Shown: positions 1 through 27,564 of the stretch, piece by piece
Layout of the letters: every line of letters begins with the position of its first letter
Position numbering within the stretch: the first letter of the stretch is position 1
Origin: a bacterium
GTDB lineage: Bacteria > Bdellovibrionota > UBA1018
DNA: 64,000 nucleotides
Assembly (NCBI GenBank): GCA_019751945.1
Contig: JAIEMT010000007.1
Coordinates: forward strand, 2,608-66,607
Direction of reading: 5' to 3'
Made by a program: the position numbers and the translations under genes
The notes under the pieces: model-generated
Database searches by the model: none
What the model saw: the letters and a program-made list of their open reading frames with translations, nothing else
Told to the model about the DNA's origin: nothing

Positions 1-235
1 GATCTGATCACGGGTCGCTTGAGGCACATCCTTGTCAAAGGTGTAAGCTGAAGCGGTTGCCGGTATTGCCAAAGATAAAATGAGAATAGGAAGAGAAATG
101 GATTTCATGATTGCGGCCCCCCTGCCGCTTGGAATGTTCATCGTGAACTACAATCTGAAAGAATGTTTCATGCGTTTCCCGACCTGACAAGGCCATGACG
201 CGCATTTTTTAACTTTTTTTATTTAACGCGACGAA

Positions 236-808
236 TTAGGACGAGAGCTTGCCGACGTATTGAACCAGACTCGCTGCGAGCTTATCGACTGCAGCGGCCT
301 GCTTGGGGTTTTTTAGCGCACCGTTCTCATCGAAGGCCTCTGCTGCCTTGGGAACCAGAACGGGGCCTGGAACGACGAGCATGTTGAGATTTTGAATCAC
401 ATTCCGAATTTGCTGAAGCCCGCGGATCGCACCAAAGGCTCCCGGAGAAGCTCCGTAAAGCGCTACCACTTTTCCTTCAAGAGGTTCCAAACCATCGTCA
501 GTAGCAGGCTCGCGCGACAACCAGTCCAAAGTATTCTTCAGCACCGCGCTAAAAGAAGAATTATATTCGGGAGAAGAGATTAAAAACCCTTGGTGGTCAT
601 GAAACATTTTTCGAAGCTTGGCCAAATTTTCTGGAGGTCCTTGATCTTCAATATCCTGATCAAAGAGAGGAAGCGGGTATTCCTTCAAATCTAAGTAAGT
701 CACCTGAGCCCCTGCCTTCTTCGCCCCCTCAGCGGCAAGACGAGCAAGCTTCTTATTGAAGGAATCTTTTCGGAGACTACCGGCAAAGGCCAAGATTTTG
801 GAAGGCAT
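236..808 (-). CDS. NADPH-dependent FMN reductase family flavoprotein
   Basis: 190 aa. N-terminus MPSKILAFAGSLRKDSFNKKLARLAAEGAKKAGAQVTYLDL matches the flavodoxin-like NAD(P)H:FMN reductase (SsuE/ArsH-type) pattern (AxSGSxRxxSxN). Confidence 0.7.
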   Translation of the reverse strand: MPSKILAFAGSLRKDSFNKKLARLAAEGAKKAGAQVTYLDLKEYPLPLFDQDIEDQGPPENLAKLRKMFHDHQGFLISSPEYNSSFSAVLKNTLDWLSREPATDDGLEPLEGKVVALYGASPGAFGAIRGLQQIRNVIQNLNMLVVPGPVLVPKAAEAFDENGALKNPKQAAAVDKLAASLVQYVGKLSS

Positions 809-843
809 GGGGGGACCTTATCAAATCCCCATGGAATCGGAAA

Positions 844-2814
844 TCACTTCTTACTGGCAAGCCCACGCTTGGGAGCAGCTTGATGCTCTTCTAAAAGCTT
901 TGCGATATCGGAGTGCCCCTTACTCGCTGCAAGCGATTGCGCGGAATCGCCCTCTTCATCTCGAGCAGTCGCGTCTGCGCCTTGCTTTAAAAGATATTGA
1001 ACAGCGCTGAGGTGGCCAAATTCAGCTGCAATGGTCAGTGGTGTGGACTGATGGTCATCGCGCTCATTGACGCCGGCACCTTTCGCAACGAGGATCTCTA
1101 AAATCTTGGCATTCCCTCGAAAGGCAGCGACGTGAATAGGTCTCTCTCCCTGGCGAGCTTTGGCTTTTACGTTTGCACCTTTTTCAATGAGGTGTGCAAC
1201 CATCTTCTCGTTTCCTGCTAGGGCCGCAACCATCAAGGGAGTCATTCCCCCATTCCGTGGATTGGGAAGTTCAATGTCTGCTCCAGCGGCTAAGAAATAA
1301 TCCACCAGCTCCATATGCCCTTGTCGGGCAGCCATATAGAGCGGGAAGTACCCGAACTCAAGCTTGCCGTTGATCTTTGTCACGGCGCCGTTTTCAATCA
1401 AGAAACGAACTCGTTCAATATTTCCAACTCGGACGGCTTCACGAAGTTCGACCTCTGGTTTGAGATAGGCGATGTAAAAGAATCCTATCAGTCCCAAGAA
1501 TGTGGCAGCCGTTGGAACTAACCAACCGCGATTTTGTTGAAAGCGATGAGTGAGTTTCCCTGCCAGCTTCGGTTCTTCAGGAAACCCTGCTTCCATTCTT
1601 TTTCTTAGAATTTCAATTCTGTCGAGCGTTGTAGGATGCGCTGCTGCCGCATTAAAAACCGTATTCGGATCTTTTTTATCGACCGAATGGTCGTTCATGA
1701 GAGTGACCTTGGTCAAAGCACTTGCGAAGGCCTCGAAGCTCGCTCCCAATTTCACTGCGTTCTCGTCCGCTTCGATTTCTTGACGACGAACGATAGTTCT
1801 CAGAAAAGAGTTCTGAGCCAAGATCGCAAATACAACTCCCATCAATACCACTGAAGCGATAGCCTCTTTCGGAAGCAGCATTGCCAAGACGACCGTAAAC
1901 AAAATATAGGGTAGAAGAACCACGAACATTCCCAGTAAACTCCACACCAAGCGCTTACGAATGTGATTCAAGGAAATGTGACTCACTTCGTGAAGAATAA
2001 TCGCTTCAAACTCTTCCTTGGTCAGCTTGGTCAGCAATGATGCGGTGAAAAAGAGAGAGGGTTTGAACCAACCCACGCCCCACTTCATTCCAGCCACCAT
2101 GGCATTGTGAACTTTGAAGCGATCCGAATTGATGATCCAGAAATTCGGCGCTTTCAAACCCGCTCGCGCAAAACAACTCGTGAGAAGCTCAATCACTTGA
2201 GGGTCCGTCACTCGTTTTGCAGGAAACATGGCCCGAATCACCACCGGAGACAGCGCGTAGATGGCAACCAAACCGCAAATAACGCCAACGGGGGTGCTGA
2301 TCCAAGCGATCGACGAGCCCAACCACTGCGGAAGGACTCCCCAGTTTTCCGCACTTCCTAGAGCGCGAGATACCGACCACATGATGGCGTAGTACGTAGC
2401 GTAGAGCCCGATGACCGAGAAAAGGCCACGCAGACCCTGAGAAAGAACTTCCCAAGCGCCAACATCAATTTTTCTCATCACCTTTTCGATGCCGAAATTG
2501 ATTTGTCCGTGAATGAACATGGCGGCGATGTAGCCGGCAAATAGATATCCCAAAACACTCTTGCCAATAATGTTGGCTGCGATGAAGGCTCCGACAAAGA
2601 AACAAATCTGTCCGAGTGTTGCTGCAAACATCACTTGGCGAGACTGATCGAGAACTTCAGCAGTAGCACCTTCTTTAGCGCCATCCGAATTTTGCTTCAG
2701 GAACCAGCTCCCCCACCAAGCGTGAAGCAGAATCAATGCGCCGGCACTCCAGATGCAAATCCAAAAGAGTTTTTCAGTAAGCGGATGTGAGCTCAATGCG
2801 AGGGACCCTCGCAT
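844..2814 (-). CDS. Multi-pass membrane M48 (HtpX/Ste24-like) zinc metallopeptidase with C-terminal ankyrin-repeat domain
   Basis: 656 aa with several hydrophobic TM segments. HEXXH zinc site ILHEVSHISLNH is followed by EIEADENA (third-ligand Glu), typical of M48. The C-terminal ~230 aa hold about 5 ankyrin repeats (GMTPLMVAALAGNEKMVAHLIEKGANV; RPIHVAAFRGNAKILEILVAKGAGV; STPLTIAAEFGHLSAVQYLLKQGAD). Confidence 0.65.
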   Translation of the reverse strand: MRGSLALSSHPLTEKLFWICIWSAGALILLHAWWGSWFLKQNSDGAKEGATAEVLDQSRQVMFAATLGQICFFVGAFIAANIIGKSVLGYLFAGYIAAMFIHGQINFGIEKVMRKIDVGAWEVLSQGLRGLFSVIGLYATYYAIMWSVSRALGSAENWGVLPQWLGSSIAWISTPVGVICGLVAIYALSPVVIRAMFPAKRVTDPQVIELLTSCFARAGLKAPNFWIINSDRFKVHNAMVAGMKWGVGWFKPSLFFTASLLTKLTKEEFEAIILHEVSHISLNHIRKRLVWSLLGMFVVLLPYILFTVVLAMLLPKEAIASVVLMGVVFAILAQNSFLRTIVRRQEIEADENAVKLGASFEAFASALTKVTLMNDHSVDKKDPNTVFNAAAAHPTTLDRIEILRKRMEAGFPEEPKLAGKLTHRFQQNRGWLVPTAATFLGLIGFFYIAYLKPEVELREAVRVGNIERVRFLIENGAVTKINGKLEFGYFPLYMAARQGHMELVDYFLAAGADIELPNPRNGGMTPLMVAALAGNEKMVAHLIEKGANVKAKARQGERPIHVAAFRGNAKILEILVAKGAGVNERDDHQSTPLTIAAEFGHLSAVQYLLKQGADATARDEEGDSAQSLAASKGHSDIAKLLEEHQAAPKRGLASKK

Positions 2815-2842
2815 TACGTATCGGGTTTAGAGCGCCTCAGGA

Positions 2843-3976
2843 TTAGAGGTAGTAGTGAGCAAGTAGGTAAAACATATTGGAAAACTGCTTGGAATCGAGA
2901 ACCATTTGCCGCTTGAACGCGCCCACGAATTCGAAATGCGGTCGTGGGAAGAACTGAACCCCAAGACCCCATGCGTCAGACGCAGAATTCGCTACCCTGG
3001 GAGTCAGGTCCGAGCGTTCGGCCGTCAAAAAAGCCACGACTCCGGGGTGAGCTTCATAGCCCAATCGGTGTGATGTCACGAAACCCGTAGCCTTCGCATC
3101 GGTAGCCTTGGTTGTTTGATTCTGGAAAAAAAACTCCGACAACAAGAAGAGTTTCTTATTCAAAGAAAGCACCGCCCAAGGTCCGTATGCCCAGCGAGTT
3201 CGAGAGGTATCTTCTCCCTGATAAACCCCAAGTCCCACTTTTTGAGATTCCAAGAAATAGTAACTCGCATTCAATGCAAAACCTTGATCGCGGGCAGTCG
3301 ACCACTCCGGAACAAATTGTCCGTACACATAAGTGAGATTCACTGCCCACTGTTCATCCAACCACGCGAGCTCGGCATTGACGGTCTCCGTGTCCTGAGC
3401 GAAACCTAAGCCGCTACGAACAAGTGTGGTGTGATCCGGCTCGTTCACACCGAAGGATTTATCAAAGCGTCCTGCACGCAGACTGAGCTGGTCGCTAAAG
3501 CGTCCCATTACATAGTAACGACGACTAAAAAAACGTCCCTGACCACGGCCCATCTCTTGACGACCGAGCGAAACATCCACAGCCCAGGATTTTGAATTGT
3601 AAGCAAACTCGGCATCGGCCTGCATGAGAATCGACCGCGCCGTTTCTGCTGTAGACGTATTCACCAGCGCCTGTAGCCAGCGAATGTCTCCACCCAGGAG
3701 CCAAGGCTCTTCCACTTTGGCCAATCCGTAAATGTAGGCTTGTTCGCCGTCTTTGGACCAGGTGCTCAGAATTTCCTTAGAAAGCTCTCGACCGTAGGGA
3801 GTGAGAACCCCGCCGCCAGATGGACTTAAGTGACAAGCAGTGCAGTTAGCGTAACCTTCTCGAATCATTTCTGGGAACGCAAAGGCGTTCGTTGCGCTCG
3901 TTGAAAGACACAAGGAAAAAAGAAAGAGGTACGCCGCCAAGTATTTCATGAATACCTCACTGCTTTTTCGCAACAA
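2843..3976 (-). CDS. Putative fused monoheme cytochrome c / outer-membrane beta-barrel (Cyc2-like) protein
   Basis: 377 aa with a signal peptide (MKYLAAYLFLFSLCLSTSATNAFA). A single CXXCH heme motif (NCTACHLS) lies within about 20 residues of the predicted mature N-terminus. The rest has alternating amphipathic strands rich in G/Y/W and an aromatic C-terminal end (LLAHYYL), like an outer-membrane beta-barrel. This architecture matches Cyc2-type cytochrome-porins. Confidence 0.4.
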   Translation of the reverse strand: MLRKSSEVFMKYLAAYLFLFSLCLSTSATNAFAFPEMIREGYANCTACHLSPSGGGVLTPYGRELSKEILSTWSKDGEQAYIYGLAKVEEPWLLGGDIRWLQALVNTSTAETARSILMQADAEFAYNSKSWAVDVSLGRQEMGRGQGRFFSRRYYVMGRFSDQLSLRAGRFDKSFGVNEPDHTTLVRSGLGFAQDTETVNAELAWLDEQWAVNLTYVYGQFVPEWSTARDQGFALNASYYFLESQKVGLGVYQGEDTSRTRWAYGPWAVLSLNKKLFLLSEFFFQNQTTKATDAKATGFVTSHRLGYEAHPGVVAFLTAERSDLTPRVANSASDAWGLGVQFFPRPHFEFVGAFKRQMVLDSKQFSNMFYLLAHYYL

Positions 3977-4574
3977 AACTCACTGCTACGTCGACATCGT
4001 TCGCCACAGTGATTCCAGAAAACGACGGAATATCGATTCCGAAATCAGCGATCTTCAACTTCATTTTGGCGTCGCCCTTGAATTGATGTTCGCCGGTGCT
4101 TTTCAAATCAATACTGCCTGAGACTGGTTGTTCTTTTCCGTGGAGGCTGAGTTTTCCTGAAAATTTTCCCTCACCGGAAAAACCGGGTTTGGAAAGCTGC
4201 TGGGGAGTCATACTGATTTCAGTAATAGAAAGTTTTGCTTTGTCGTTCCCTGGTTTTTCTACTTCGAGATACTTTTCCTTCATGTGACGGTCGCGAAGAG
4301 AGATGCCACTTTCAAATTCCTTGAGGTTAATCAGGAATTCGCCAGAGACTTTGGAATTTTCAAAAGAAATTTTGCCTTCGGGCTTGGCACCTTTTCCGCG
4401 AATGCGAAGCGCACTGGGCCGACCCACGGCGATAAACTCCACACTCGATTGCTGAGCATCCAAAGCATAGACCGTTTTTGCCGCTGCTGGAGTACTCGCC
4501 GAAAAACCCGAGTTGGAAACCAATAAGATAGAAGCTAGTGCCCAAAGATTTTGAACCTTCATACGCCCCTCCAC
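3957..4574 (-). CDS. YceI-like periplasmic (polyisoprenoid-binding) protein
   Basis: 205 aa, signal peptide, YceI-like beta-barrel signature (YALDAQQSSVEFIAVGRPSALRIRGKG). Overlaps the downstream Cyc2-like gene start by 20 nt. Confidence 0.5.
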   Translation of the reverse strand: MEGRMKVQNLWALASILLVSNSGFSASTPAAAKTVYALDAQQSSVEFIAVGRPSALRIRGKGAKPEGKISFENSKVSGEFLINLKEFESGISLRDRHMKEKYLEVEKPGNDKAKLSITEISMTPQQLSKPGFSGEGKFSGKLSLHGKEQPVSGSIDLKSTGEHQFKGDAKMKLKIADFGIDIPSFSGITVANDVDVAVSFVAKKQ

Positions 4575-4610
4575 CGCCGGTTCTTACATGAGAGGGCTAT
4601 GTCAGGCTAC

Positions 4611-6011
4611 TTAAATGAGAAGTTGCTTGAGAATCGGAGCTGGAGCGCCATTGCGGGTGGCAGATCGATGCATCGCAGTCGGAACATCGAATGACGTGAA
4701 CAGTGTATTCATCACTGACGCGATGTTGAGATAGTGCGTGGCATCGTAAGTAGCCGGCAAATCGTCCTTCGGAATTCCGTTGGTAAAATCAAAAGGCTTG
4801 CCCATGATTTTGACCATCTCAGAATCCACAGCCTTGTGAGCGGCAGAGAGCTCCATCTTTGCATCTGTCCCATCCGATGCTCCAAAAACACAACCGCCAC
4901 GAATACCTTTGCCACCCAACCAAATCGAATTATTTAAGGCATTGTGATTTGTTCCGGTCTCATCGATCTTCGATCCCGTAATTCGCATGGTGCGAGAAAA
5001 CTCGGAAGCAAACATCACGGTGGTCACATCCAAAAGCGAACGATTGGCATCGTAGGGCGTATCTTGCAAACCCTTGAAGATGTTTGAAACTCGAGTGACG
5101 ACTTCCTTCGCCATCGCAGGCATTTTCTTCGCACTGGCTGCATCGTGACAATCTACGTTGCTCAAATCATTTCCTGCTAAAGACAAAATTCCGCAACGAG
5201 TAATTCCGTTCAGAAAGAAGGAGCCCAACATCTCCACAAATTTACCCTCTTCAGTCGTGGCTTTAAAATCACCCGAAGCCTTGAGAAGACGCTCACTGAT
5301 GATCGGAGAGGTCTCAAATCCCTCAGCCATTGCCAAAGATCCGTTCGAAAATCTTCCCTTGCCGCCGCCGTTCTTTTCCATTCGAGCATGAAGAAAGTTT
5401 AAAAGCGGCGATTTCAAATCGAAGGGCTTACTCTTCTTGAGTTTTTCAGCAATGATGGCAGCAGAAGCACTGCTCAGAGGAATGATTCTCGACACATTGT
5501 TGAGATTGGCGAAAAGCGTGCCTGATTGGATCGCATCCAAAGGCATCTCTTCTTTTCGTTGCGACCCCACTCGATTGAAAGAAGGCACAAAGCTTTCGCC
5601 GCCGAAGGCGTCGCCGGTCAACATCAAGTTTTCGCACTGATCGTGGCCATCCAGGCTCGAGCTCATCACCACGCCATTGAGAATGGAAAACTTATCCTTA
5701 AAAGGCAGGAGCGGATCCATAATCTTGGTCGCTAAACACTGGCCGCCATTGGCGCCCTTCCAAACCTGAGGATCTTCACCGGTATAGTTTTGAATTTTCC
5801 CTGCCGCAGTCATCTCCAAAGGACGCGCATCGAAGAAGTAGGACGGATCCAGACCCCCTTGCACAAAAATCTGGAGAAAGAAATGAGGATCAGCTTCGGG
5901 CTTATGAACATTTGAAAAAGCCCAAGACCAACGAGGAATATAAAGAGCACCAATGCCCGCTACGAGCATTCGTACAAAATCCCGTCGCGAAGTATTTGAA
6001 TCGAGCTCCAT
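4611..6011 (-). CDS. Tat-secreted DUF1501 family protein (sulfatase/phosphatase-like fold)
   Basis: 466 aa. Twin-arginine signal SRRDFVRMLVAGIGALYIP. DUF1501 proteins are usually encoded next to PSCyt/DUF1549/DUF1553 proteins, as here. Confidence 0.6.
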   Translation of the reverse strand: MELDSNTSRRDFVRMLVAGIGALYIPRWSWAFSNVHKPEADPHFFLQIFVQGGLDPSYFFDARPLEMTAAGKIQNYTGEDPQVWKGANGGQCLATKIMDPLLPFKDKFSILNGVVMSSSLDGHDQCENLMLTGDAFGGESFVPSFNRVGSQRKEEMPLDAIQSGTLFANLNNVSRIIPLSSASAAIIAEKLKKSKPFDLKSPLLNFLHARMEKNGGGKGRFSNGSLAMAEGFETSPIISERLLKASGDFKATTEEGKFVEMLGSFFLNGITRCGILSLAGNDLSNVDCHDAASAKKMPAMAKEVVTRVSNIFKGLQDTPYDANRSLLDVTTVMFASEFSRTMRITGSKIDETGTNHNALNNSIWLGGKGIRGGCVFGASDGTDAKMELSAAHKAVDSEMVKIMGKPFDFTNGIPKDDLPATYDATHYLNIASVMNTLFTSFDVPTAMHRSATRNGAPAPILKQLLI

Positions 6012-6012
6012 A

Positions 6013-6600
6013 TTACTTCCTTAGTAAGAAATACGGGTTCATAAAAATGGCAAACGATGCTGACTGCAAAAGTTCTTGATGCGAAACTTTCTCAAACTCC
6101 GGTCCCAAGAAAAAATCTCTCCAGGCCTGGTACTCTTCGATTGGCGCATCGTAACGCATCACCTGTAGCCACAACGCTTCGAGGTTTTCTTCCGTACGTG
6201 CCGAAGCCGCAGGCCAAGCACAGAGCGGCTTGGCAAGAGTCAGCGTTTCATCGTTTAGAAGAGACGAGTCCTCGCAAAGCTTTCCAAAGTCCTCGGAAAA
6301 TCCGCTGAACACCAAATACCAAAGCAGGAGATTCACTCCGTTTGGCTGTGCATTCTGATATCCAGTTGTAAGTCCCGTACTCTTGTAGACGCCCATCAAT
6401 TCCAGAAGAGCCGTATCAAAATCCTTGGTTCCCTCTCCGACGTAGGTCCCCAGAGATGTCTTAGGGGATCGGAGCAGGCGCTGATTGACAGTTTGATCTG
6501 TTTCGACGAAGCCCCGAAATCCTGCCATGGGCGCAGCCACCTCGGCTGCAGCCACCGAGGAAACCAAAAGACCCAGTGCCATCAGTTTCAGAGGTTTCAT
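6013..6600 (-). CDS. Secreted hypothetical protein
   Basis: 195 aa with a signal peptide (MKPLKLMALGLLVSSVAAAEVAA). Tightly packed between the DUF1549/1553 and DUF1501 genes (4-nt overlap upstream, 1-nt gap downstream). Confidence 0.35.
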   Translation of the reverse strand: MKPLKLMALGLLVSSVAAAEVAAPMAGFRGFVETDQTVNQRLLRSPKTSLGTYVGEGTKDFDTALLELMGVYKSTGLTTGYQNAQPNGVNLLLWYLVFSGFSEDFGKLCEDSSLLNDETLTLAKPLCAWPAASARTEENLEALWLQVMRYDAPIEEYQAWRDFFLGPEFEKVSHQELLQSASFAIFMNPYFLLRK

Positions 6601-8609
6601 TTTCTAGCTTCCTTTGCCGCTTGCTTCAGAACGCTATTGGACCACGTGTAAAGTTCGTTCAAATCGCCCGGAGTCATATAGCGATGCTTCGGCATACGGA
6701 GCTCCGGATCCGGACTGGAAAGGCGATCCGAAATCATTTCGAAAGTTTGATTTCGGGAATACTGTTTTCCCGTGGCATCCACGTGATGAAAACTAGAACT
6801 CCCATCGGGCATCGAAATCCACTTGGTCAAGTCTAATGGATTCTCGTCAGAGACGACGTTGTGGCAAGTCACACAATTCTTCTGAAGCAGGAAATTTACC
6901 TTACAAGGAGGCGATCCCTTAGAATCCACTCCCGGCGCGGAATCATAGCAGCGATCTGCTACAGGATCGGTCTGCGCAAAAGTACATCCCAGAACCACAC
7001 TGCCCACCACACTCTTGAACGCCACTGAAGAATTTTTCTTCTTCGCGATCGTATTGAATTGCTGGGTGAGATAGTCGAGGTAGCCCGCATCTAAAATTTG
7101 GTCTTCCGTGTTGAAATACTGGAAGACTCTTCGAACCAAGCACTGGCGCACTTCTGGAGCCTCTCCGATAATTCTAAAAAGATCGTCGAGATTTTCGCCG
7201 TATTCATTATGTTTTGATTCACCTGCTGCGCGAATGTAGCCAATGCGCCACTTACGATCTTTACTTCCCGTTTCTAACCATTCCTTTTCGTAGTTGCTGT
7301 ATTTTACTTTCGCTCCGTCATCGAAAAAGAGTTCGTCTTTTTCAAGATCTGCGGGCGTGAAAAAAGATCCTTGATCCTTAAAGAACCCTGCCATTGGATC
7401 GAGCTTATAATGACAAGCAAAACAGCTCGGGTCGTCTCCATGTTTCTTTTGACCATGATCGCCCGGGCTTTCGACGTTGATCGGCGTGAGATCATCGCAA
7501 AAGAAGCGCTTCAAAATATAGGAGGCCCGCTTGCGATTATAGTTGGTCGAAGAATTCGTCAGCGTGACCTTAGCAGGAAAGGTAAACATGGTTTGACGGT
7601 ACTTCGATGAAGCACCCAAATCCTTCATGTCTATTTTTCTGATTTGATCCACCGTCGCCGGAAAATAAGCGGGGGGCTCGAATTCCATTATATTCTTGAT
7701 GTGAAGCTCACTCTTAGCCTGGGCCGCTTTTAAAGCATCCAAGATAGCAAAGTTTCGATTTTCCGGCTTTCCGTCGAAACAGCCGTTGTAGAGTTTGCCA
7801 AAAAAGTCGGGATCAAAAAATAAATCAAAAGAGAGGTAGAAGTGAAGACCAAGCCCCTGCAAGGGACCGTTAGGATCTTGCTTCCCGTCGGTAAACTTTT
7901 TACAAAAACCATCCCAATCATTCGGATTGGCTTGAACCCAATCCAGCAGCTTTTGCATTCGGGCTCGATATTCTTTGATCCGAACACGACGGATCTCCTG
8001 CTGAGACTTCCCGACTTCATTGGGATCCTCTTTATCAGCCGTAACTTCACCTAACGGCAGAATAAAAGAGGGCTGATGGAGCTTTAAGAGTTGAAGGTAG
8101 TCGCCGTTTTTGACGGTGTTTTGGGCAGAGGCCACAGCGCTTGGAAAACCGATGACCTCATTACTAAAGCTTCCATCCTTGTTTCGAACGGCGCCCAGCT
8201 TACTTCCTAAAAAGTACATGTTGAAATCTAAGACCGTGTCAGCAAAAAATGGGTCATTCAGAAGTTTTTGAACAACCTGGCGTCGATTGAGACGCATGAA
8301 TTCGCTCAGTTCAGCCTTTCCGCGAACCCCTTGACCACCGCGCATGGCCTTGACGGTTTTTTCAATCCAGATTTTCTTCTGCCAATCGTCTGGGAAAAAA
8401 GGTTTTCCTTCGGGTGATTCGCAGGCGTTCATCGGCACGTACTTCGCCTTTACGACATCGGGATTTGGAAGGTCATCAACAAACTGTGTTGAACAAGAAG
8501 CGGCGACAATGGTCAGTGCCACTAGAGAAATTCGAGAATAGTATTGAGAAAAACCCCCCGGTTTCTTCACGTGACGTTCAATACTATAATTTGGGAAAGT
8601 TGCAGTCAA
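6597..8609 (-). CDS. PSCyt/DUF1549/DUF1553-type cytochrome c domain protein
   Basis: 670 aa with two CXXCH heme-binding motifs (CFACHYKLDP and CVTCHNVVSD). Co-located with DUF1501, the typical pairing of this planctomycete-type cytochrome c family. Confidence 0.5.
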   Translation of the reverse strand: MTATFPNYSIERHVKKPGGFSQYYSRISLVALTIVAASCSTQFVDDLPNPDVVKAKYVPMNACESPEGKPFFPDDWQKKIWIEKTVKAMRGGQGVRGKAELSEFMRLNRRQVVQKLLNDPFFADTVLDFNMYFLGSKLGAVRNKDGSFSNEVIGFPSAVASAQNTVKNGDYLQLLKLHQPSFILPLGEVTADKEDPNEVGKSQQEIRRVRIKEYRARMQKLLDWVQANPNDWDGFCKKFTDGKQDPNGPLQGLGLHFYLSFDLFFDPDFFGKLYNGCFDGKPENRNFAILDALKAAQAKSELHIKNIMEFEPPAYFPATVDQIRKIDMKDLGASSKYRQTMFTFPAKVTLTNSSTNYNRKRASYILKRFFCDDLTPINVESPGDHGQKKHGDDPSCFACHYKLDPMAGFFKDQGSFFTPADLEKDELFFDDGAKVKYSNYEKEWLETGSKDRKWRIGYIRAAGESKHNEYGENLDDLFRIIGEAPEVRQCLVRRVFQYFNTEDQILDAGYLDYLTQQFNTIAKKKNSSVAFKSVVGSVVLGCTFAQTDPVADRCYDSAPGVDSKGSPPCKVNFLLQKNCVTCHNVVSDENPLDLTKWISMPDGSSSFHHVDATGKQYSRNQTFEMISDRLSSPDPELRMPKHRYMTPGDLNELYTWSNSVLKQAAKEARK

Positions 8610-8612
8610 TTT

Positions 8613-9632
8613 TTAAGACGAAGCAATTGCAGCAACAAACTGGTCTACATCGGTCGGTGTCGTATTCCACGAAGTCATCCAACGAGCGATCGGCCCCTTC
8701 GGATCAACAACGTAGAAATAAAAGTCTTTTTGAAGACGTTCCACTAAAGGAGGGGAGAGTCGAACAAAAATCGCGTTTGCCTGTACTGGGTACAAAACGG
8801 GAATCGCCTCTAAATTTGAAACCCCTTTGTAGAGGCGCTGAGCCATTTCATTCGCGTGAAGAGCGTTAGTCTTCCAAATTTCTTTTTCTAAATAAGCTTC
8901 AAACTGGCAAGAAAGGTAACGCATCTTCGAGGCTAACTGCATGGCCTGCTTTCGAACAAAATGAAAGCGCTCTGCAAACTGGGGCTGATTGAAGAATACG
9001 ACGGCCTCTCCTAGAAGCATTCCATTCTTCGTCCCTCCAAAAGACAGCACATCCACACCCAAGTCGGCACTGAGAGACTTCAAAGATCCGTTCAGACTCA
9101 CGACTGCATTTGAAAAGCGAGCCCCGTCCACGTGCAAAAACATTTTATGAGCGTGCGCAAAATCTGCGAGCGCTTTTACCTCCTGAGAGGAATAAACTGT
9201 TCCTAATTCGGTGGTTTGAGAAATGCTAATCACCCTGGGCTGAACCCGATGGGGATCTCCTTTATAAGTCAGGAACGGCTCAATCTGCTCGGGACAAAGC
9301 TTTCCATCTTTTGTTGGAAGAGCGAGTATCTTTACACCGGCGAATTTTTCGAGAGCCCCGCATTCGTCGACTTGAAGATGGGCGGTGTCAGGACAGATCA
9401 CCGCTTCATGCGGAAGCATGCAACTCGAAATGGCCGTGACGTTCGCACCGGTTCCATTAAAAACAGGAAAAGCCTGTGCTGCAGATCCAAAGTGCTTCTG
9501 AAACAGTTTTTCAATCGATACGGTTTTAGAATCTGCACCGTACGCAGAAGCCCAGGCTTGATTCTCCATTTCGAGAGACTTCAAAAGAAGAGGATGCGCC
9601 GGGACGGTGTTGTCGCTTGCAAAGGTTTTCAC
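8613..9632 (-). CDS. ltaE: Low-specificity L-threonine aldolase (beta-eliminating lyase family, PLP)
   Basis: 339 aa. The N-terminus MKTFASDNTVPAHPLLLKSLEMENQAW... and overall layout match the threonine aldolase family. Confidence 0.7.
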   Translation of the reverse strand: MKTFASDNTVPAHPLLLKSLEMENQAWASAYGADSKTVSIEKLFQKHFGSAAQAFPVFNGTGANVTAISSCMLPHEAVICPDTAHLQVDECGALEKFAGVKILALPTKDGKLCPEQIEPFLTYKGDPHRVQPRVISISQTTELGTVYSSQEVKALADFAHAHKMFLHVDGARFSNAVVSLNGSLKSLSADLGVDVLSFGGTKNGMLLGEAVVFFNQPQFAERFHFVRKQAMQLASKMRYLSCQFEAYLEKEIWKTNALHANEMAQRLYKGVSNLEAIPVLYPVQANAIFVRLSPPLVERLQKDFYFYVVDPKGPIARWMTSWNTTPTDVDQFVAAIASS

Positions 9633-9670
9633 AGCGCTGTCTTACCCGAGCCGGGAATAAGAAAAAAGAC

Positions 9671-10561
9671 CTAATCAATGAGGATTTGATTGGTAACAGC
9701 CGGAGGTGGCTCACCCCAAAGAGTCTTCAGATCTGAAAGAGGCACGATCTCTAACGGTTCTTTTGCATTGTCGAGACTGGCCAGAAGCGTGGCTTCTTGG
9801 GTGGCCTTCTTGAGTTCTGCCACTTGAGTGGCGTGCGATTCGTGAGCCGCCTTGAGTTCACGAGAATACGCCTCAACGACATTTGCAGATTCGGCCTGTG
9901 CACTTTCAAGCTGAGCGAGCTTCTTTTCATACTCCGCCTTGGTTTTTTCTTTTTCGCGAGAAAACTCCCACTCCAAGCGTTCGCGCATGGAGACTTCTGC
10001 TTTCTTCAACTCCTGGTCAAAAACTCGCTTACTTGCGGATAAGGCCTGCTGTTCCTTCATCAGCTCTGCAAACTTTGCTTCCGCACTATGCAGGCGCACC
10101 AAGGTGTTTTGCAACTCGAGTTGATAAGACTTGGCATGACGCTCAACCTGCTCACGCGCCGTTTTCTCCACAGAAAGATCGGAGACTGCTTTCTTGAGTT
10201 TCAACTCCAAGGCAGAAATTTTTTCGCGATCGATTTCGTATTCTTTTATGGCAAGCTTGGCTTCTTTTTCTTTTTGAAGCACGTCTGTCCAAGCGCCTCG
10301 ATATTGGGTGAGCTCTTTTCTCAGGGTATTGATTTCGGTTTTAGCCTGGCCTTCAAAAGTTCGATACTCATTCAACGCCATCTTCATTCTGGTTAGAATG
10401 GTTTCGTATTCTTTCAGCTTCTGATCTTTTTCTTGAACGAGACGATCGTAGACTTTCTGACTTTGCTCGTAGTCCTGCTTGAGCTGTTGCACTTCTTTAT
10501 CTTTGTTCGAAAGTGTTTCTTCTAACTGGCGAATGGCCAGAAGAAAGGCGTCAGAGTTCAT
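9671..10561 (-). CDS. Coiled-coil protein (hypothetical)
   Basis: Heptad-rich and K/E/Q-rich over about 290 aa. The track ORF extends to 10729, but the first 56 residues are R/P/S-rich and overlap the MarR gene. Start taken at the internal Met (MNSDAFLLAIRQLEE). Confidence 0.4.
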   Translation of the reverse strand: MNSDAFLLAIRQLEETLSNKDKEVQQLKQDYEQSQKVYDRLVQEKDQKLKEYETILTRMKMALNEYRTFEGQAKTEINTLRKELTQYRGAWTDVLQKEKEAKLAIKEYEIDREKISALELKLKKAVSDLSVEKTAREQVERHAKSYQLELQNTLVRLHSAEAKFAELMKEQQALSASKRVFDQELKKAEVSMRERLEWEFSREKEKTKAEYEKKLAQLESAQAESANVVEAYSRELKAAHESHATQVAELKKATQEATLLASLDNAKEPLEIVPLSDLKTLWGEPPPAVTNQILID

Positions 10562-10592
10562 CTTTCTATTTTCAACTCGACGAGCGGGGGAG

Positions 10593-11069
10593 TCAAACAG
10601 GGGTACTGGGCAAGATCTTCCCGGCTTCAGAGCTCGCAAAGGCGGCTCGGAAGCGCGCGATGCGCTGAACGGTGCCACGGACCTCCTGGGCTCCAAACTT
10701 CTGCTCGAAGTAATTTTCAACGGAGTCAATTGTTTGAATGAGCTTCACAGCCAGGCGGCGCCCCTCCGGCCTCAGGATGAGCTGATAGCTCCGGGCGTCT
10801 TTTTCATTGAGCTTTCGTCGGAGCAGGCGCCTCTTCTCAAGGTGGGAAACGCCATGGCTAATATTGCCGCGAGTTGTCCCTAGAATATCAGCGAGCTGGG
10901 ACGGACTTACGGCGTCGTTCTTCTCGAAAAACAAGGAGATCAAAATCAAGGCTTGCATGAGGTTGCAGTTCTCTTGCTTGAGCTTGGAATTCAGCCCTCT
11001 TAGGATCGTGTCATAGCTAGATCCGATGGCCAGAAGCAGGCTGTTTTGAACGAATTTTTCGATTTTCAT
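10593..11069 (-). CDS. MarR family transcriptional regulator
   Basis: 158 aa with a winged-helix MarR signature (LSPSQLADILGTTRGNISHGVSHLEKRRLLRRKLNEKDARSYQLILRPEG). Divergent from bioB. Confidence 0.7.
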   Translation of the reverse strand: MKIEKFVQNSLLLAIGSSYDTILRGLNSKLKQENCNLMQALILISLFFEKNDAVSPSQLADILGTTRGNISHGVSHLEKRRLLRRKLNEKDARSYQLILRPEGRRLAVKLIQTIDSVENYFEQKFGAQEVRGTVQRIARFRAAFASSEAGKILPSTPV

Positions 11070-11179
11070 GATGGACTAATCCGATTTCTAAATAGTTTAA
11101 GTCGTCAACTATCTAGCACTAAATCTATATCGCTTCCAATCTTATTTAATTCCAATAGAAAGCGTTTCCTGGCAAATGA

Positions 11180-12121
11180 TTGTCCATGGAAAACAATCTA
11201 TTAGCCCAAGCCGAAGCTCTTTATAACCAACCCTTTATGGACCTGCTCTATCAGGCTCATCAAGTGCATCGACAACACCACGACCCCGCAGAAATTCAAC
11301 GCTGCACTTTGCTCTCCATCAAAACCGGGGGCTGCCCTGAAGATTGTTCGTACTGCCCGCAATCGGCGCACTACGATACTGGCTTGGAACGCGAAAATTT
11401 AATGCCACTCGAGAAGGTTCGAGAAGCCGCCAAGAACGCCTCAGCCAATGGCGCTCAACGATTTTGCATGGGCGCCGCGTGGAGAAATGTGAAGGACGGA
11501 CCCGAATTCGACCGCGTTTTAGAAATGGTCAAAATCGTGAAAGCGGAAAACATGGAAGCCTGCGTGACGCTCGGAATGCTGACGGAAAGCCAAGCTCAGC
11601 GTCTCAAAGAAGCGGGTCTCGATGCTTACAATCACAACTTAGATTCCAGCCGCGAATTTTATGAAAAAATTATTCACACGAGGAACTATGACGACCGACT
11701 CAATACACTGAAAGCTTGCCGAAGTGCTGGCCTCACCGTTTGTAGCGGCGGAATCATTGGCATGGGGGAATCCGTGAAAGACCGTTGCGGACTCCTGGCT
11801 GAACTTGCTGCTTTGGATCCCCAACCTGAGTCAGTTCCGATCAACTTACTGATTCCCGTTGCTGGCACACCTCTCGAAAAGTCGAAGGAAGTCGATCCGA
11901 TTGATTTGGTGAAAACCATCGCTGTTGCCAGAATTCTCATGCCGAAATCGCGCGTTCGCCTTTCGGCCGGCCGAATCTCGCTCACCAAAGAAGCCCAGGT
12001 TTTGGCGTTCTTTGCTGGAGCTAACTCTGTTTTCTTAGGAGAGACCCTACTCACACGCCCGAATCCCACCCCGGATCAAGATCATCAGCTGTTGTCGAGC
12101 TTGAGTGGGTCTGTGCACTGA
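11180..12121 (+). CDS. bioB: Biotin synthase (radical SAM)
   Basis: 313 aa. CxxxCxxC radical-SAM motif ([13 protein letters not shown]). First gene of the bio operon. Confidence 0.9.
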
Positions 12122-13222
12122 GTGGATTTTAACCCTCACTTCGAAAAAATTATTCGCGAGTTAGAAGCTGCTTCTCAGCACAGGAGCTTGAAGCCCCGAA
12201 GTGGTGTTGATTTCTCTTCCAATGATTATTTAGGATTTAGCGAAGATAAGATTCTTCGTCAGCGCATTCTTGCTCGTTTAGAAAATCTTCCCACCGGGTC
12301 AACCGGATCGCGCCTCCTCCGAGGAGAAAACGAAGTTTACTCACAAGCTGAAGCCACGCTGGCTCGTTTCTCAGCACGAGAAGCTGCGATTATTTTTCCC
12401 TCGGGATATCAGGCTAACTTGGGATTATTGAGCGGGCTTGTGGGCCCTAACGATGTCGTGTTTTCAGATCAATTCAATCACGCCTCGATCATCGACGGCA
12501 TTCGACTCAGTCGTGCGCAAAAGAAAGTTTACCCTCATTGTGATCTGGGACAGTTAGAAGAACTCCTTCGCACGACTTCCAGCAACGGCCTAAAACTGAT
12601 CGTGACCGAATCGATTTTCAGCATGGACGGCGATCGCGCTCCACTCAGTGACTTGGCAGATCTAGCCGAGAAATATGAAGCAGGTTTGGTGGTGGATGAA
12701 GCGCATGCCACTGGGCTGTACGGATCGGGCTTGGTTCAAGAACTTCTCCTAACCGATCGCGTGTTGGCCACACAACATACGGGCGGAAAGGCCCTCGGCG
12801 TCGGTGGAGCCTGGATTGCCTGCAGCGCGGCCCTAAAAGATTACCTCGTAAACTTTTCAAGGCCCCTCATTTTTTCAACGGCACCCATTCCTGCTCTAGC
12901 GGTATCACTCGAAGAATCCGTCCTACACTTGTCCAGCGCAGGACCCGAGCAAATTGAAGCGCTTTGGCGTCACTGTAGTTTATTGAGCGCAAGCTTGAAC
13001 CTTCGTCAAATACGCGGTCCTATTTTTCCGTACATCTTGGGTGATAATGCATCTGCACTTCGCATGAGCCAAAAACTCATTGCCGCAGGTCTCGATGTGC
13101 GCGCCATTCGACCCCCCACAGTTCCGGAAGGAACTGCCCGCCTTCGAATGACGATTCACGCGGATCAAGATCCGAAGGACATTCAGAAACTCACGCGGAT
13201 TCTGCAGGAGTCGATGTCATGA
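12122..13222 (+). CDS. bioF: 8-amino-7-oxononanoate synthase
   Basis: 366 aa alpha-oxoamine synthase. PLP-lysine region GTLGKALGVGGAW and VVDEAHATGLYG. GTG start directly after the bioB stop. Operon context supports bioF rather than kbl or spt. Confidence 0.8.
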   Translation: MDFNPHFEKIIRELEAASQHRSLKPRSGVDFSSNDYLGFSEDKILRQRILARLENLPTGSTGSRLLRGENEVYSQAEATLARFSAREAAIIFPSGYQANLGLLSGLVGPNDVVFSDQFNHASIIDGIRLSRAQKKVYPHCDLGQLEELLRTTSSNGLKLIVTESIFSMDGDRAPLSDLADLAEKYEAGLVVDEAHATGLYGSGLVQELLLTDRVLATQHTGGKALGVGGAWIACSAALKDYLVNFSRPLIFSTAPIPALAVSLEESVLHLSSAGPEQIEALWRHCSLLSASLNLRQIRGPIFPYILGDNASALRMSQKLIAAGLDVRAIRPPTVPEGTARLRMTIHADQDPKDIQKLTRILQESMS

Positions 13223-25971: not shown

Positions 25972-27564
25972 CTACCTCAGCTCGGAAATATATGTCTCGA
26001 GCTCCGGCAGACTGGAGGGATGCAAATGTTCGACCGGAGGCATGGGGCGAGCGCTTCTTGAGTGGATTCGCTCGATAAAGGATTCAATGAAGTCGGCCTT
26101 GTTTCTGCCTGCCTTTTCTAGCTGCTGAGCTAGTTTGGGGAGGTCATCTAGAGCTAAATCGGGGGCGCCGGTTTCTCCGCCCTCGTGGCAGGTCATACAT
26201 TTCTGTTGAATCAGACGAACTGGTGGGACACCAGCCGGCTCTTCCTGTTTTGCAAAAACATTTAAGGGATTGAAACCCAGTCTACTCGCTTCCTTTTTGA
26301 GATCGTTTTCGATGCCATAGCAAAACCACCTCGGATATTTAAAGAGGTTCGAGCCCCCAAAAGCTTTCGATAAAAGGGCAAAATCAGATTCGGGACCGAG
26401 CGTTGAAGTAAAAGCTGCAGAATTCTTTTTTAGACCTAGGCTCAACTGATCCAACTCAATGCCCATGGCTTTCAACGCCACAGCCCAAACCCTTGATCCA
26501 TCGTAAATTCCAAATGAGTCTTTGCGATCTGCGTACTTTGAAGTGTACTCCGGAGAAAAAGCATTTTTTCGGTTTCGACGCTCGCGACGGTAATCTCCTA
26601 AACTTCTACCGAGATCAGAGGTGTACTGATCTCCAAGCGACCCCGGTAAGCAATCAATGTCTTTCACCGGACCAAGACTTGTAGAGTAGGGAAATTCAAG
26701 AATTCGCTTTTTGATTTCATCCGAACGTTTGATTTTGGTCGCGATCCGCCTGACGTTGAGTTCGTGAAGATGAGTTGCTAAACGTAAATTCGGTCTGACA
26801 AAAAAACCATTTTCTACCGAATAGTCTTTAGACGGAAAATCATTGGAACGAGGTCGCCAGTAGGGAAAATATTTCAAATACTCGTTTAGCTTACTATTTG
26901 GATCCGTAGCCTTCAACTCACCCAGCTGTCGATACCGATCCATTCCCGGTTTGGCTTTCTTAAATTTCTCGAAACTTTCTTGCTCAGCCTTGATGAAATC
27001 AATCTGATCATCATCACTGCCATACACTCCAGGCCAGGGGGCGTAGGTGTCCCAGATTGGACGAAGCTCTTGCCGATGGCAGAGGGTGCAGGATTTTGGA
27101 TTTTCCCGGAACTCGGGCCGAGAGCCAGGTGAGAATTTAATCTCATTAAAAAGAAAAGTATCTGACCCATCATCAAACTGAATGATCTCGACCTTGTCGT
27201 AATTTCTCTGAGACGGATGTCCATTGAAAGCCAGAATCAGTTTTCCGTCGCCGCCAAAGAGAATCGCTCGAGGGTACTGATAGCTCGCCCCTTGGAGGCT
27301 TCGGCTTCCGTACACCAGCGTATAGTTTGTTCGATACTCTAAAGGAAGAATGGACAACATCGTGTCCACATCTTGAATATTCTGAGCGATGACCTGATCT
27401 TTCAACCAATCATAAGTAGGAGATTGGGAGTAAGAAAAAGCAAAGTCTTCCTTGGTATAGGATGCTTTCTCAGCAAGCCAGATATCTGTATTGAGTGCCG
27501 AGGCACCCGATGGAAAAAAGAAAACAGTCGCGGAGGAAAGACTGAAACTCGCGACTGTTTTCAA
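25972..27564 (-). CDS. Secreted protein with two c-type heme-binding motifs
   Basis: 530 aa with a signal peptide. CXXCH motifs CTLCHRQE and CMTCHEGG are about 290 residues apart. No wider family recognised. Confidence 0.4.
   Translation of the reverse strand: MKTVASFSLSSATVFFFPSGASALNTDIWLAEKASYTKEDFAFSYSQSPTYDWLKDQVIAQNIQDVDTMLSILPLEYRTNYTLVYGSRSLQGASYQYPRAILFGGDGKLILAFNGHPSQRNYDKVEIIQFDDGSDTFLFNEIKFSPGSRPEFRENPKSCTLCHRQELRPIWDTYAPWPGVYGSDDDQIDFIKAEQESFEKFKKAKPGMDRYRQLGELKATDPNSKLNEYLKYFPYWRPRSNDFPSKDYSVENGFFVRPNLRLATHLHELNVRRIATKIKRSDEIKKRILEFPYSTSLGPVKDIDCLPGSLGDQYTSDLGRSLGDYRRERRNRKNAFSPEYTSKYADRKDSFGIYDGSRVWAVALKAMGIELDQLSLGLKKNSAAFTSTLGPESDFALLSKAFGGSNLFKYPRWFCYGIENDLKKEASRLGFNPLNVFAKQEEPAGVPPVRLIQQKCMTCHEGGETGAPDLALDDLPKLAQQLEKAGRNKADFIESFIERIHSRSARPMPPVEHLHPSSLPELETYISELR

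Follow-up and report, generated by a model that had tools for sequence, protein, structure and literature searches.

We analysed a 64,000-nucleotide stretch of DNA (hereafter, the window) from a bacterium of the Bdellovibrionota lineage UBA1018 (assembly GCA_019751945.1, contig JAIEMT010000007.1, positions 2,608 to 66,607 of the forward strand), in which a compact array of minus-strand genes occupies positions 844-8609. In our favoured reading, to which we assign a probability of about 0.6, two envelope modules, each conserved independently of the other, and an unrelated membrane protease lie side by side in this interval, an arrangement peculiar to this species. Module A is a trio of genes coding for a diheme c-type cytochrome, a small secreted protein and a DUF1501 protein exported by the twin-arginine translocation (Tat) pathway. 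Module B codes for a YceI-family lipocalin and a monoheme cytochrome-porin and would be a redox porin pair, possibly linked to copper. An earlier note, made from the letters alone, had counted seven genes here and proposed that they form a single cell-envelope redox or electron-transfer unit. The listing of open reading frames (ORFs) holds six in this interval, which is also the number of products that the note itself names. They are given here with the two genes that flank them:

6597..8570, minus strand: diheme c-type cytochrome, 657 amino acids (aa); the longest ORF, from 8609, has 670 aa; module A
6013..6600, minus strand: secreted protein of 195 aa with a signal peptide; module A, gene 2
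4611..6011, minus strand: Tat-exported DUF1501 protein (PF07394), 466 aa; module A, gene 3
3957..4562, minus strand: periplasmic YceI-family lipocalin (PF04264), 201 aa; the longest ORF runs from 4574; module B
2843..3949, minus strand: monoheme cytochrome-porin, 368 aa, with a CTACH motif and a predicted barrel; module B, gene 2
844..2814, minus strand: M48-ankyrin protease (PF01435), 656 aa, or 650 aa from the alternative start at 2796 called in a sister assembly
236..808, minus strand: NAD(P)H-dependent FMN reductase (PF03358, E=9e-44), 35 nucleotides (nt) downstream of the protease
8613..9632, minus strand: low-specificity threonine aldolase-like pyridoxal phosphate enzyme (PF01212, E=2e-44), 42 nt upstream of module A

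Separate conservation of the trio and the YceI-porin pair

To place the porin gene in its genomic contexts, one genome per GTDB species was scanned. From the 130 relatives that it returned, 80 loci were retained; with that of Bacteriovorax stolpii, the collection comprises 81 porin loci. Essentially all belong to the Bdellovibrionota (Pseudobdellovibrionaceae, Bacteriovoracia and Oligoflexia), and the porin family appears to be restricted to this phylum. When all the window proteins were compared with these loci by tblastn, a YceI gene was found immediately upstream of the porin gene, on the same strand, in 74 of the 79 loci with room for one, which bears out the linkage of the two genes seen earlier in the window. 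In the same search, the DUF1501 protein, the 195-aa protein, the M48 domain, the FMN reductase and the aldolase were found at none of the 81 loci, and the trio cytochrome gave one weak match, 7 kb off and on the opposite strand. The trio was recovered in four other contexts (L084, L085, L206 and L207). All four have the same order, a cytochrome gene, a gene for 179-213 aa and a DUF1501 gene for 456-470 aa, overlapping or near-touching, and none has a YceI or porin gene beside it. The trio is a self-contained unit found in several phyla (Bdellovibrionota, and Alphaproteobacteria including Hyphomicrobiaceae), and the protease lies adjacent but is the conserved partner of neither module. We regard the interval as composite because no porin locus holds the trio or the M48 domain, every trio locus lacks the pair, and a 48-nt junction lies between two modules that are each internally coupled. 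A six-gene unit is not supported beyond near-identical strains of this species: the order of the whole set, whose conservation the note had proposed to check, is lost outside them, and that of the YceI-porin pair is kept.

The spacing of the genes was computed from starts backed by ribosome-binding sites and by the gene calls of sister assemblies. The cytochrome gene starts at GTG 8570, in agreement with the 657-aa calls of the sister assemblies, and the YceI gene probably at ATG 4562, with a GGAGGGG ribosome-binding site ahead of it. The cytochrome and 195-aa genes overlap by 4 nt (ATGA), a single nucleotide separates the stop of the latter from the DUF1501 start, and 7 nt separate the YceI and porin genes. 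The gap between the DUF1501 and YceI genes measures 48 nt; this is the loosest junction in the five-gene stretch made of modules A and B, and it falls exactly at the module boundary. A further 28-46 nt lie between the porin gene and the protease gene. Gaps of 1-30 nt, as first described, are roughly right apart from that at the boundary. Within each of modules A and B, the genes are translationally coupled.

In consensus scans, the intergenic gaps were all free of terminator-like sites, and neither promoter nor terminator counts rose above those of shuffled controls. A sigma-70-like sequence, TTGACT-17-TAGTAT, lies at 8581-8609 (minus strand), just before GTG 8570; it would mean a very short leader, and it is at chance level when compared with shuffled sequence. 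Rfam returned no RNA family in 1-12500, a repeat scan found neither mobile-element boundaries nor meaningful repeats, and base composition is even. The window proteins match entries MBY0470142-149. A ten-gene order is identical in three independent assemblies, which come from near-identical strains, and because it recurs in this way the array is not an assembly chimera. An apparent additional case of synteny through a BioA-like gene was discarded, the 633-bit match being to the window's own sequence inside a cluster.

The 657-aa cytochrome has a probable lipoprotein signal (…VAASC) and two CXXCH motifs, CFACH at 7410-7424 and CVTCH at 6861-6875, both verified by translation. It had been taken for a DUF1549/1553 protein. 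This assignment did not hold: at E<=0.01, Pfam gave no DUF1549 or DUF1553 match, and the sole match, to PSCyt3/DUF1588, reached 17.4 bits, under the 27-bit cut-off. The two CXXCH motifs and the remaining identities given at the outset (a small secreted protein, a Tat-exported DUF1501 protein, a YceI-like protein, a barrel with one N-terminal CXXCH that was called Cyc2-like, and an M48 protease with ankyrin repeats) are all borne out by the analyses described here and below. Homologues of the cytochrome carry sporadic PSCyt3, PSD2 and PSCyt1 flags only. More than 500 relatives at 34-42% identity were found, from Bdellovibrionota as well as from Rhodomicrobium and Hyphomicrobiaceae, and across 29 homologues both CXXCH motifs, the Met of an RMP motif and six further Cys are invariant. 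AlphaFold2 modelled a mostly helical protein (predicted local distance difference test score, pLDDT, 84; predicted template modelling score, pTM, 0.84) for which Foldseek found no fold relative in the PDB (best E 0.39). PDB sequence searches with the cytochrome and with the DUF1501 protein gave nothing significant.

The 195-aa protein has no match in Pfam or NCBIfam, and a homologue search returned 4 hits only; its homologues (pairwise E about 1e-33) hold the same middle position in L084, L206 and L207, and L085 has a partial homologue there. The DUF1501 protein scores 51.2 bits against a cut-off of 27, with only profile positions 284-343 aligned, carries the Tat motif SRRDFV at 5973-5990 and is 39-50% identical to the DUF1501 proteins of the four trio loci. 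The trio belongs to the uncharacterised class of planctomycete-type cytochrome/DUF1501 partner genes. Pairs of PSCyt and partner genes are abundant and functionally unexplained (PMC5615132), as the note had also remarked. Like the PSCyt plus DUF1501/DUF1552 pairs, the trio sets a large secreted or lipoprotein c-type cytochrome beside a Tat-exported DUF1501 protein. It differs from them in that its cytochrome fits no PSCyt2/DUF1549/DUF1553 model and PSCyt3 only below threshold, in its conserved third gene between the other two, and in being found in Bdellovibrionota and Alphaproteobacteria.

The protease matches PF01435 at profile positions 4-185 of 186 (73.1 bits) and Ank_2 (116 bits), and its HEVSH motif at 1978-1992 was verified by translation. 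About seven transmembrane helices are predicted from crude hydropathy and the positive-inside rule, in a window scan that splits one helix in two, and HEVSH falls on the positively charged, probably cytoplasmic side. Like HtpX-type M48 proteases, the window protease is polytopic in the membrane, contains HEXXH and has a Peptidase_M48 match that is full-length; unlike them, it adds N-terminal helices and, after an additional transmembrane helix, a C-terminal ankyrin domain of ~200 aa. That extra helix is predicted to put the ankyrin domain in the periplasm, which would be unusual for ankyrin repeats. A specific kinship of this domain to the ankyrin-cupredoxin of the copper operons described below was considered and rejected, since an identity of 26-32% is what ankyrin repeats generally show.

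Alternatively, all six genes might be transcribed together and serve electron transfer in the envelope as one unit: the PSCyt and DUF1501 proteins would exchange electrons via YceI and the porin, with the M48-ankyrin protein as a dedicated accessory. The common strand, the short gaps that hold no terminator-like site and the order kept in the three assemblies of the species are consistent with such a unit. In addition, the small PSCyt1-type cytochrome that usually accompanies the pair is missing here, and the C-terminal ~90 aa of the trio cytochrome form a PSCyt1-type heme module that is homologous to the modules of the porin-associated cytochromes (HHalign 93.8%, P=1.7e-7). The canonical operons also have a secreted ankyrin-cupredoxin beside YceI, and the protease ankyrin domain is predicted to be periplasmic. 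However, the PSCyt1-type module is invariant across the trio-cytochrome family even where the porin is absent, and it is therefore not an adaptation to the porin. The ankyrin similarity is, as said, generic, and the trio and the M48 domain keep apart from the porin loci just as YceI and the porin keep apart from the trio loci. Moreover, the tight co-directional array extends past both ends of 844-8609 to take in the aldolase and the FMN reductase, which have no envelope role; nothing ties the reductase to the cluster. We consider a single six-gene unit unlikely. A secondary functional link between trio and pair in this species has a low probability; it comes into question because the dedicated cytochrome is lacking and the only nearby PSCyt1-type module is that of the trio cytochrome.

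A monoheme cytochrome-porin and its relation to Cyc2

Both products of module B were characterised. The YceI protein has an N-terminal signal sequence and matches its family model over profile positions 1-150 of 150 (67.1 bits, cut-off 23.7). The 368-aa porin comprises a signal peptide, then AFPEMIREGYANCTACH…LTPYGR, and then a 16-strand beta-barrel. Its N-terminus reads MKYLAAYLFLFSLCLSTSATNAFA, then FPEMIREGYANCTACH, and the protein has exactly one CXXCH, the heme motif CTACH at 3830-3844, verified by translation. AlphaFold2 (pLDDT 87.2, pTM 0.83) placed 16 beta-strands after an N-terminal segment of ~55 residues and thus returned a barrel, not a soluble or non-barrel protein. Foldseek matched the model to 16-strand porins of the PDB (chitoporin, OprP 2O4V, PorB and OmpU/OmpT) with a probability of 1.00 and E about 1e-10. 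No Pfam or NCBIfam model matches the porin, a PDB sequence search gave nothing significant, and tblastn against the PLSDB plasmids found no match. A word-indexed search returned 403 relatives, of which the nearest other than the porin itself is only 50% identical and the named ones are from Bacteriovorax, Bdellovibrionales and Oligoflexia. A profile search of 1.84 billion cluster representatives gave 2182 matches at E<=0.001, 1479 at E<=1e-10 and 713 at E<=1e-30.

The barrel resembles general as well as substrate-specific porins, and one homologue has a weak Porin_O_P match in Pfam. The protein could on these grounds be an ordinary diffusion or structural outer-membrane protein, its CXXCH incidental or vestigial and its adjacency to YceI due to a lipid or envelope role that both share and that involves no redox chemistry. 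The conservation pattern makes this highly improbable: C36, C39 and H40, together with M109, H173 and H338, are invariant in an unbiased alignment of 40 sequences (40/40), and the N-terminal segment is the best-conserved region of the protein (consensus AFPExxRHGYxNCTACHxSPSGGGxLTPYGRELSKE over the same 40 sequences). The c-type cytochrome genes at 57 of the 81 porin loci, described below, likewise argue against it. That the protein is a fused monoheme cytochrome-porin, with a putative c-type heme segment of ~50 residues joined to the barrel, is well supported.

The same architecture is that of Cyc2, for which Keffer et al. 2021 (PMC8406198) give four features: a signal peptide with one CXXCH; AXPXFAR[Q/K][T/Y] upstream of CXXCH, used as an inclusion filter; PXL 4 residues downstream of CXXCH; and a length of at least 365 aa with a 16-strand porin modelled on OprP. 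The window porin has the signal peptide, the single CXXCH and the barrel, and at 368 aa it is borderline in length. In place of the upstream motif, it reads AFPEMIREG and its family AFPExxRHG; the A, P and R are kept in register, and F-A and [Q/K][T/Y] are lost. Where PXL would be expected, the window reads CTACH-LSPSGGGVLTP; an HHalign alignment shows here a 3-residue insertion, and the LTP[FY]GR that comes next is common to both families.

The Cyc2 side of these comparisons consisted of canonical Cyc2-like genes drawn from metagenomes by scanning the DNA for a FARQT…CxxCH pattern. In nearly all of the matches, three residues separate FARQT from C, and 55 full-length proteins of 424-532 aa came out of the scan. 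HHalign set the porin family, AfPEmvRHGYxNCTaCHvSPSGGGvLTpYGReL, against Cyc2, AvPSFARQTGxxCxaCHtxf---PeLTpfGRxF, in register after the signal-peptide cleavage site, so that both share A-x-P-x-hydrophobic-x-R-(5 residues)-CxxCH…LTP[FY]GR. The HHalign probability was 95.4% for whole proteins and 96% for the heme segment alone (P=4e-9, 30 columns). Among the controls, unrelated heme modules gave P about 1e-5, a reversed Cyc2 segment P=0.011, and 20 column shuffles mostly P>0.03, the best being 5e-5; with the CXXCH columns removed, the LTPxGR side still gave P=9e-5. Searches of profile hidden Markov models against single sequences scored 10-23 bits between porin and Cyc2, were inflated by signal peptides and a tiny database, and are not used as evidence. 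No porin match was found in the Cyc2-like loci by tblastn.

The porin family has further features in common with Acidithiobacillus ferrooxidans Cyc2, Mariprofundus Cyc2PV-1 and Leptospirillum Cyt572: a Sec signal peptide, a lone CXXCH some 11 residues after the mature N-terminus, OprP (2O4V) as best structural analogue, as reported for Cyc2, and no other domains. It differs by RHGY (in the window, REGY) in place of FAR[Q/K][T/Y], by the 3-residue SPSGGG insertion where Cyc2 has PXL, and by its smaller size, 360-390 aa as compared with the 424-532 aa of the metagenome sample. It is also accompanied almost always by YceI and in many cases by copper genes; neither linkage occurs in 80 canonical Cyc2-like loci (493 kb), where YceI, a PSCyt1-type cytochrome and an ankyrin-cupredoxin were all absent. 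As judged from these alignments, the porin family has the same architecture as Cyc2 and is probably its remote sister. Since the defining motif fails, we do not file it as a member of Cyc2. As a side observation, proteins with FARQT-3-CxxCH seem to be common in Joint Genome Institute metagenomes (at least 120 stretches; L086-L165 are examples), which suggests that Cyc2-like proteins reach beyond the known iron oxidisers.

Cytochrome and copper contexts of the pair

Clustering of neighbouring ORFs identified a PSCyt1-type lipoprotein cytochrome c as the commonest third neighbour, present in 57 of the 81 porin loci. These porin-associated cytochromes carry 1-5 PSCyt1-like monoheme modules; the single-module version occurs in one further context. 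At L034, L037, L045, L047, L051, L055 and L078, Pro-rich linkers connect the tandem monoheme modules, which calls to mind a heme wire that spans the periplasm and can vary in length. Several of the multi-module cytochrome loci have a divergent regulator-like gene of ~630 aa and no copper genes. In the minimal context, a PSCyt1 monoheme cytochrome, YceI and the porin stand together, copper genes being absent; in another, the porin is an orphan. YceI and the porin, with c-type cytochromes where these are present, look like an envelope redox module. To this extent the envelope redox unit proposed for the window stands, for the pair with its c-type cytochromes and not for the six-gene set.

Copper-type genes lie within 10 kb of the porin gene at 28 of the 81 loci; in roughly one third of the loci, the pair thus belongs to a copper-resistance operon under CsoR control. 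The counts are 20 for CsoR, 17 for the ankyrin-cupredoxin, 14 for P1B-ATPases, 13 for resistance-nodulation-division (RND) genes and at least 6 for multicopper oxidases. All the closest homologues of the window porin (47-50% identity) are in operons with the order CsoR, u200, u304, u190, diheme cytochrome, ankyrin-cupredoxin, YceI, porin, CopA, where the two or three genes after CsoR encode unknown secreted proteins (about 200, 304 and 190 aa). Such CsoR-headed operons occur in B. stolpii CP030035 (about 2.610-2.632 Mb; L001, 4993-15224) and in L082 and L083 (5000-13500) and are flanked by multicopper oxidase and Cus-type RND genes; their cupredoxin and diheme cytochrome were confirmed by Pfam. 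A porin variant with Tyr31 also lies in such an operon, with CusF, DUF305 and CsoR at its flanks.

The rus operon of A. ferrooxidans encodes an electron chain of Cyc2, the diheme Cyc1 and rusticyanin. The canonical Bdellovibrionota operon likewise joins a cytochrome-porin, a diheme cytochrome c and a type-1 copper protein. Unlike rus, it has no cytochrome oxidase genes, is headed by the CsoR repressor, has CopA or a multicopper oxidase at its end, and fuses its cupredoxin to ankyrin repeats; of these features, CsoR, the cupredoxin, CopA and multicopper oxidase are absent from the window itself. This resemblance to rus, together with the shared architecture and a heme segment in register with that of Cyc2, might suggest that the porin is a divergent Cyc2 that oxidises Fe(II) in solution at the outer membrane, either to gain energy or to detoxify it, as Cyc2 of acidophiles and neutrophiles oxidises Fe(II) (PMC8406198). 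However, FAR[Q/K][T/Y] is absent, the neighbours are copper genes and not iron genes, the YceI linkage has no counterpart in the 80 Cyc2-like loci, and the Bdellovibrionota hosts are not known as lithotrophic iron oxidisers. We regard an Fe(II) oxidase as very unlikely. In the full-text literature, we found no Cyc2-like protein described in Bdellovibrionota, no YceI/cytochrome-porin pair, no link between Cyc2 and a copper operon, and no published description of the CsoR-YceI-porin-CopA operon; one hot-spring study lists, without detail, a Bdellovibrionota metagenome-assembled genome among those with iron-oxidation markers, a set that includes Cyc1 and Cyc2.

Module B of the window evidently descends from a copper operon and has been moved out of it. 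CsoR, cupredoxin, CopA, multicopper oxidase and a dedicated PSCyt1-type cytochrome gene upstream of YceI are all absent here. Elsewhere in the window, a 530-aa ORF (25972-27564, minus strand) matches Cytochrom_C at its C-terminus with 21.6 bits, marginally over the cut-off, and Cytochrome_CBB3 below the cut-off; against the profile of the porin-associated cytochromes its match is weak (E=1e-4), and an adjoining 388-aa ORF has no Pfam match. Two other minus-strand genes, for a 1221-aa beta-helix/CBM35 protein (30228-33893) and a ParB-like nuclease (PF08857, 18903-19514), appear to be unrelated.

The window porin also departs from its family at codon 31 (3857-3859, minus strand), five residues before CXXCH, where it has Glu (REGY) as against His (RHGY) in 37 of the 40 unbiased homologues. 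Among the columns conserved to at least 85% in the pattern-retrieved set, this is the only departure, and Glu31 is also found in the independent assemblies. It may mark functional divergence of the relocated porin copy. A figure of 99% His31 taken from the 81 loci was discarded in favour of 37/40, the retrieval pattern itself having required His.

Possible roles of the pair

In the mechanism that we propose, the heme would sit where the barrel opens to the periplasm, either at this mouth or inside it, and would pass electrons between a small redox-active solute of the pore and periplasmic c-type cytochromes or cupredoxin, carriers that would connect onward to the respiratory chain. From the copper-operon ancestry, the solute would most likely be Cu(I) and less likely Fe(II). 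YceI would be indispensable to the porin and would probably bind a lipid or an isoprenoid quinone and keep it at the barrel, and in most relatives the electron partner would be the PSCyt1-type lipoprotein cytochrome encoded just upstream of YceI. The window pair, with its partners lost and with Glu31, may be a re-purposed copy; if so, its nearest heme partner would be the C-terminal module of the trio cytochrome.

A role that dispenses with a metal substrate is suggested by BcnA-LcoA, a YceI lipocalin and a cytochrome b561 that guard the envelope from lipid peroxyl radicals, possibly via a bound quinone (PMC9113575). By this analogy, YceI would carry ubiquinone or lipid radicals and would be recycled by the cytochrome, so that peroxidation of outer-membrane lipids, such as copper may provoke, would be quenched. 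Linkage of YceI lipocalin genes to cytochrome b561 genes is widespread, lipid peroxidation rises when either gene is mutated, and quinone recycling has been proposed (PMC9113575). Here, too, a secreted YceI lipocalin is genetically coupled to a membrane-embedded cytochrome and a stress context is plausible, copper stress being pro-oxidant, which fits the CsoR operons; an antioxidant system would also explain why YceI is near-obligatory at the porin loci despite its absence from the Cyc2-like loci. On the other hand, the present cytochrome has a single c-type heme on a barrel of the outer membrane and is not a diheme b561 helical bundle in the inner membrane. The 16-strand open-porin scaffold, the blue-copper protein and the multi-module cytochromes c that accompany the pair would be left unexplained, and this YceI clade has no known ligand. 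Although we consider a purely antioxidant function unlikely, it may by analogy be a serious rival, or a complementary role under copper-induced oxidative stress.

Our favoured reading of the interval, two separate modules and a protease with module B as a possibly copper-linked redox pair, has to be set against several observations, which weigh against it. About two thirds of the 81 loci have no copper gene within 10 kb, so that copper may be one context among several, and no CsoR, cupredoxin, CopA or multicopper oxidase gene lies within the window. The retrieval pattern for the 81 loci, which required His31, could under-sample variants like that of the window. The similarity to Cyc2 is confined to ~30 residues; the barrels alone gave P=0.038, which is not significant, and one column shuffle reached 5e-5. 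Convergence is therefore possible. Because the 80 Cyc2-like loci are without YceI, its near-obligatory presence beside the porin is left unexplained by a metal-oxidase model. Finally, it is by inference that we assign to the whole porin family a bound heme, a place in the outer membrane, a substrate and a direction of electron flow.

We put forward, tentatively, a more specific proposal. The porin family may be an unrecognised sister of Cyc2 in which a monoheme porin, an obligatory YceI and PSCyt1 cytochromes constitute a copper redox system of the outer membrane (for example, Cu(I) oxidation inside the pore under CsoR control). The window copy would then be a neofunctionalised paralogue, changed from His31 to Glu, deprived of its dedicated cytochrome and rewired to the DUF1501-associated cytochrome. 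If this is true, Cyc2-type cytochrome-porins are not iron-specific.

In genomes and metagenomes alike, Cyc2 is the marker by which microbial iron oxidation is recognised. The porin family, large and of the same fused architecture, is found in predatory bacteria. If it acts on copper or on lipid radicals, cytochrome-porin chemistry is broader, inference of iron oxidation from this marker needs more caution, and YceI proteins gain a concrete partner. As for the DUF1501/PSCyt proteins, their apparent link to an outer-membrane conduit in the window is a local accident of gene order. B. stolpii, whose complete genome carries the full operon, may offer a direct test of the hypothesis if genetics are feasible there. 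What deserves note beyond the interval itself is the probable existence, throughout the Bdellovibrionota, of an unannotated sister family of Cyc2 that is coupled to YceI and appears to be ancestrally tied to copper homeostasis.

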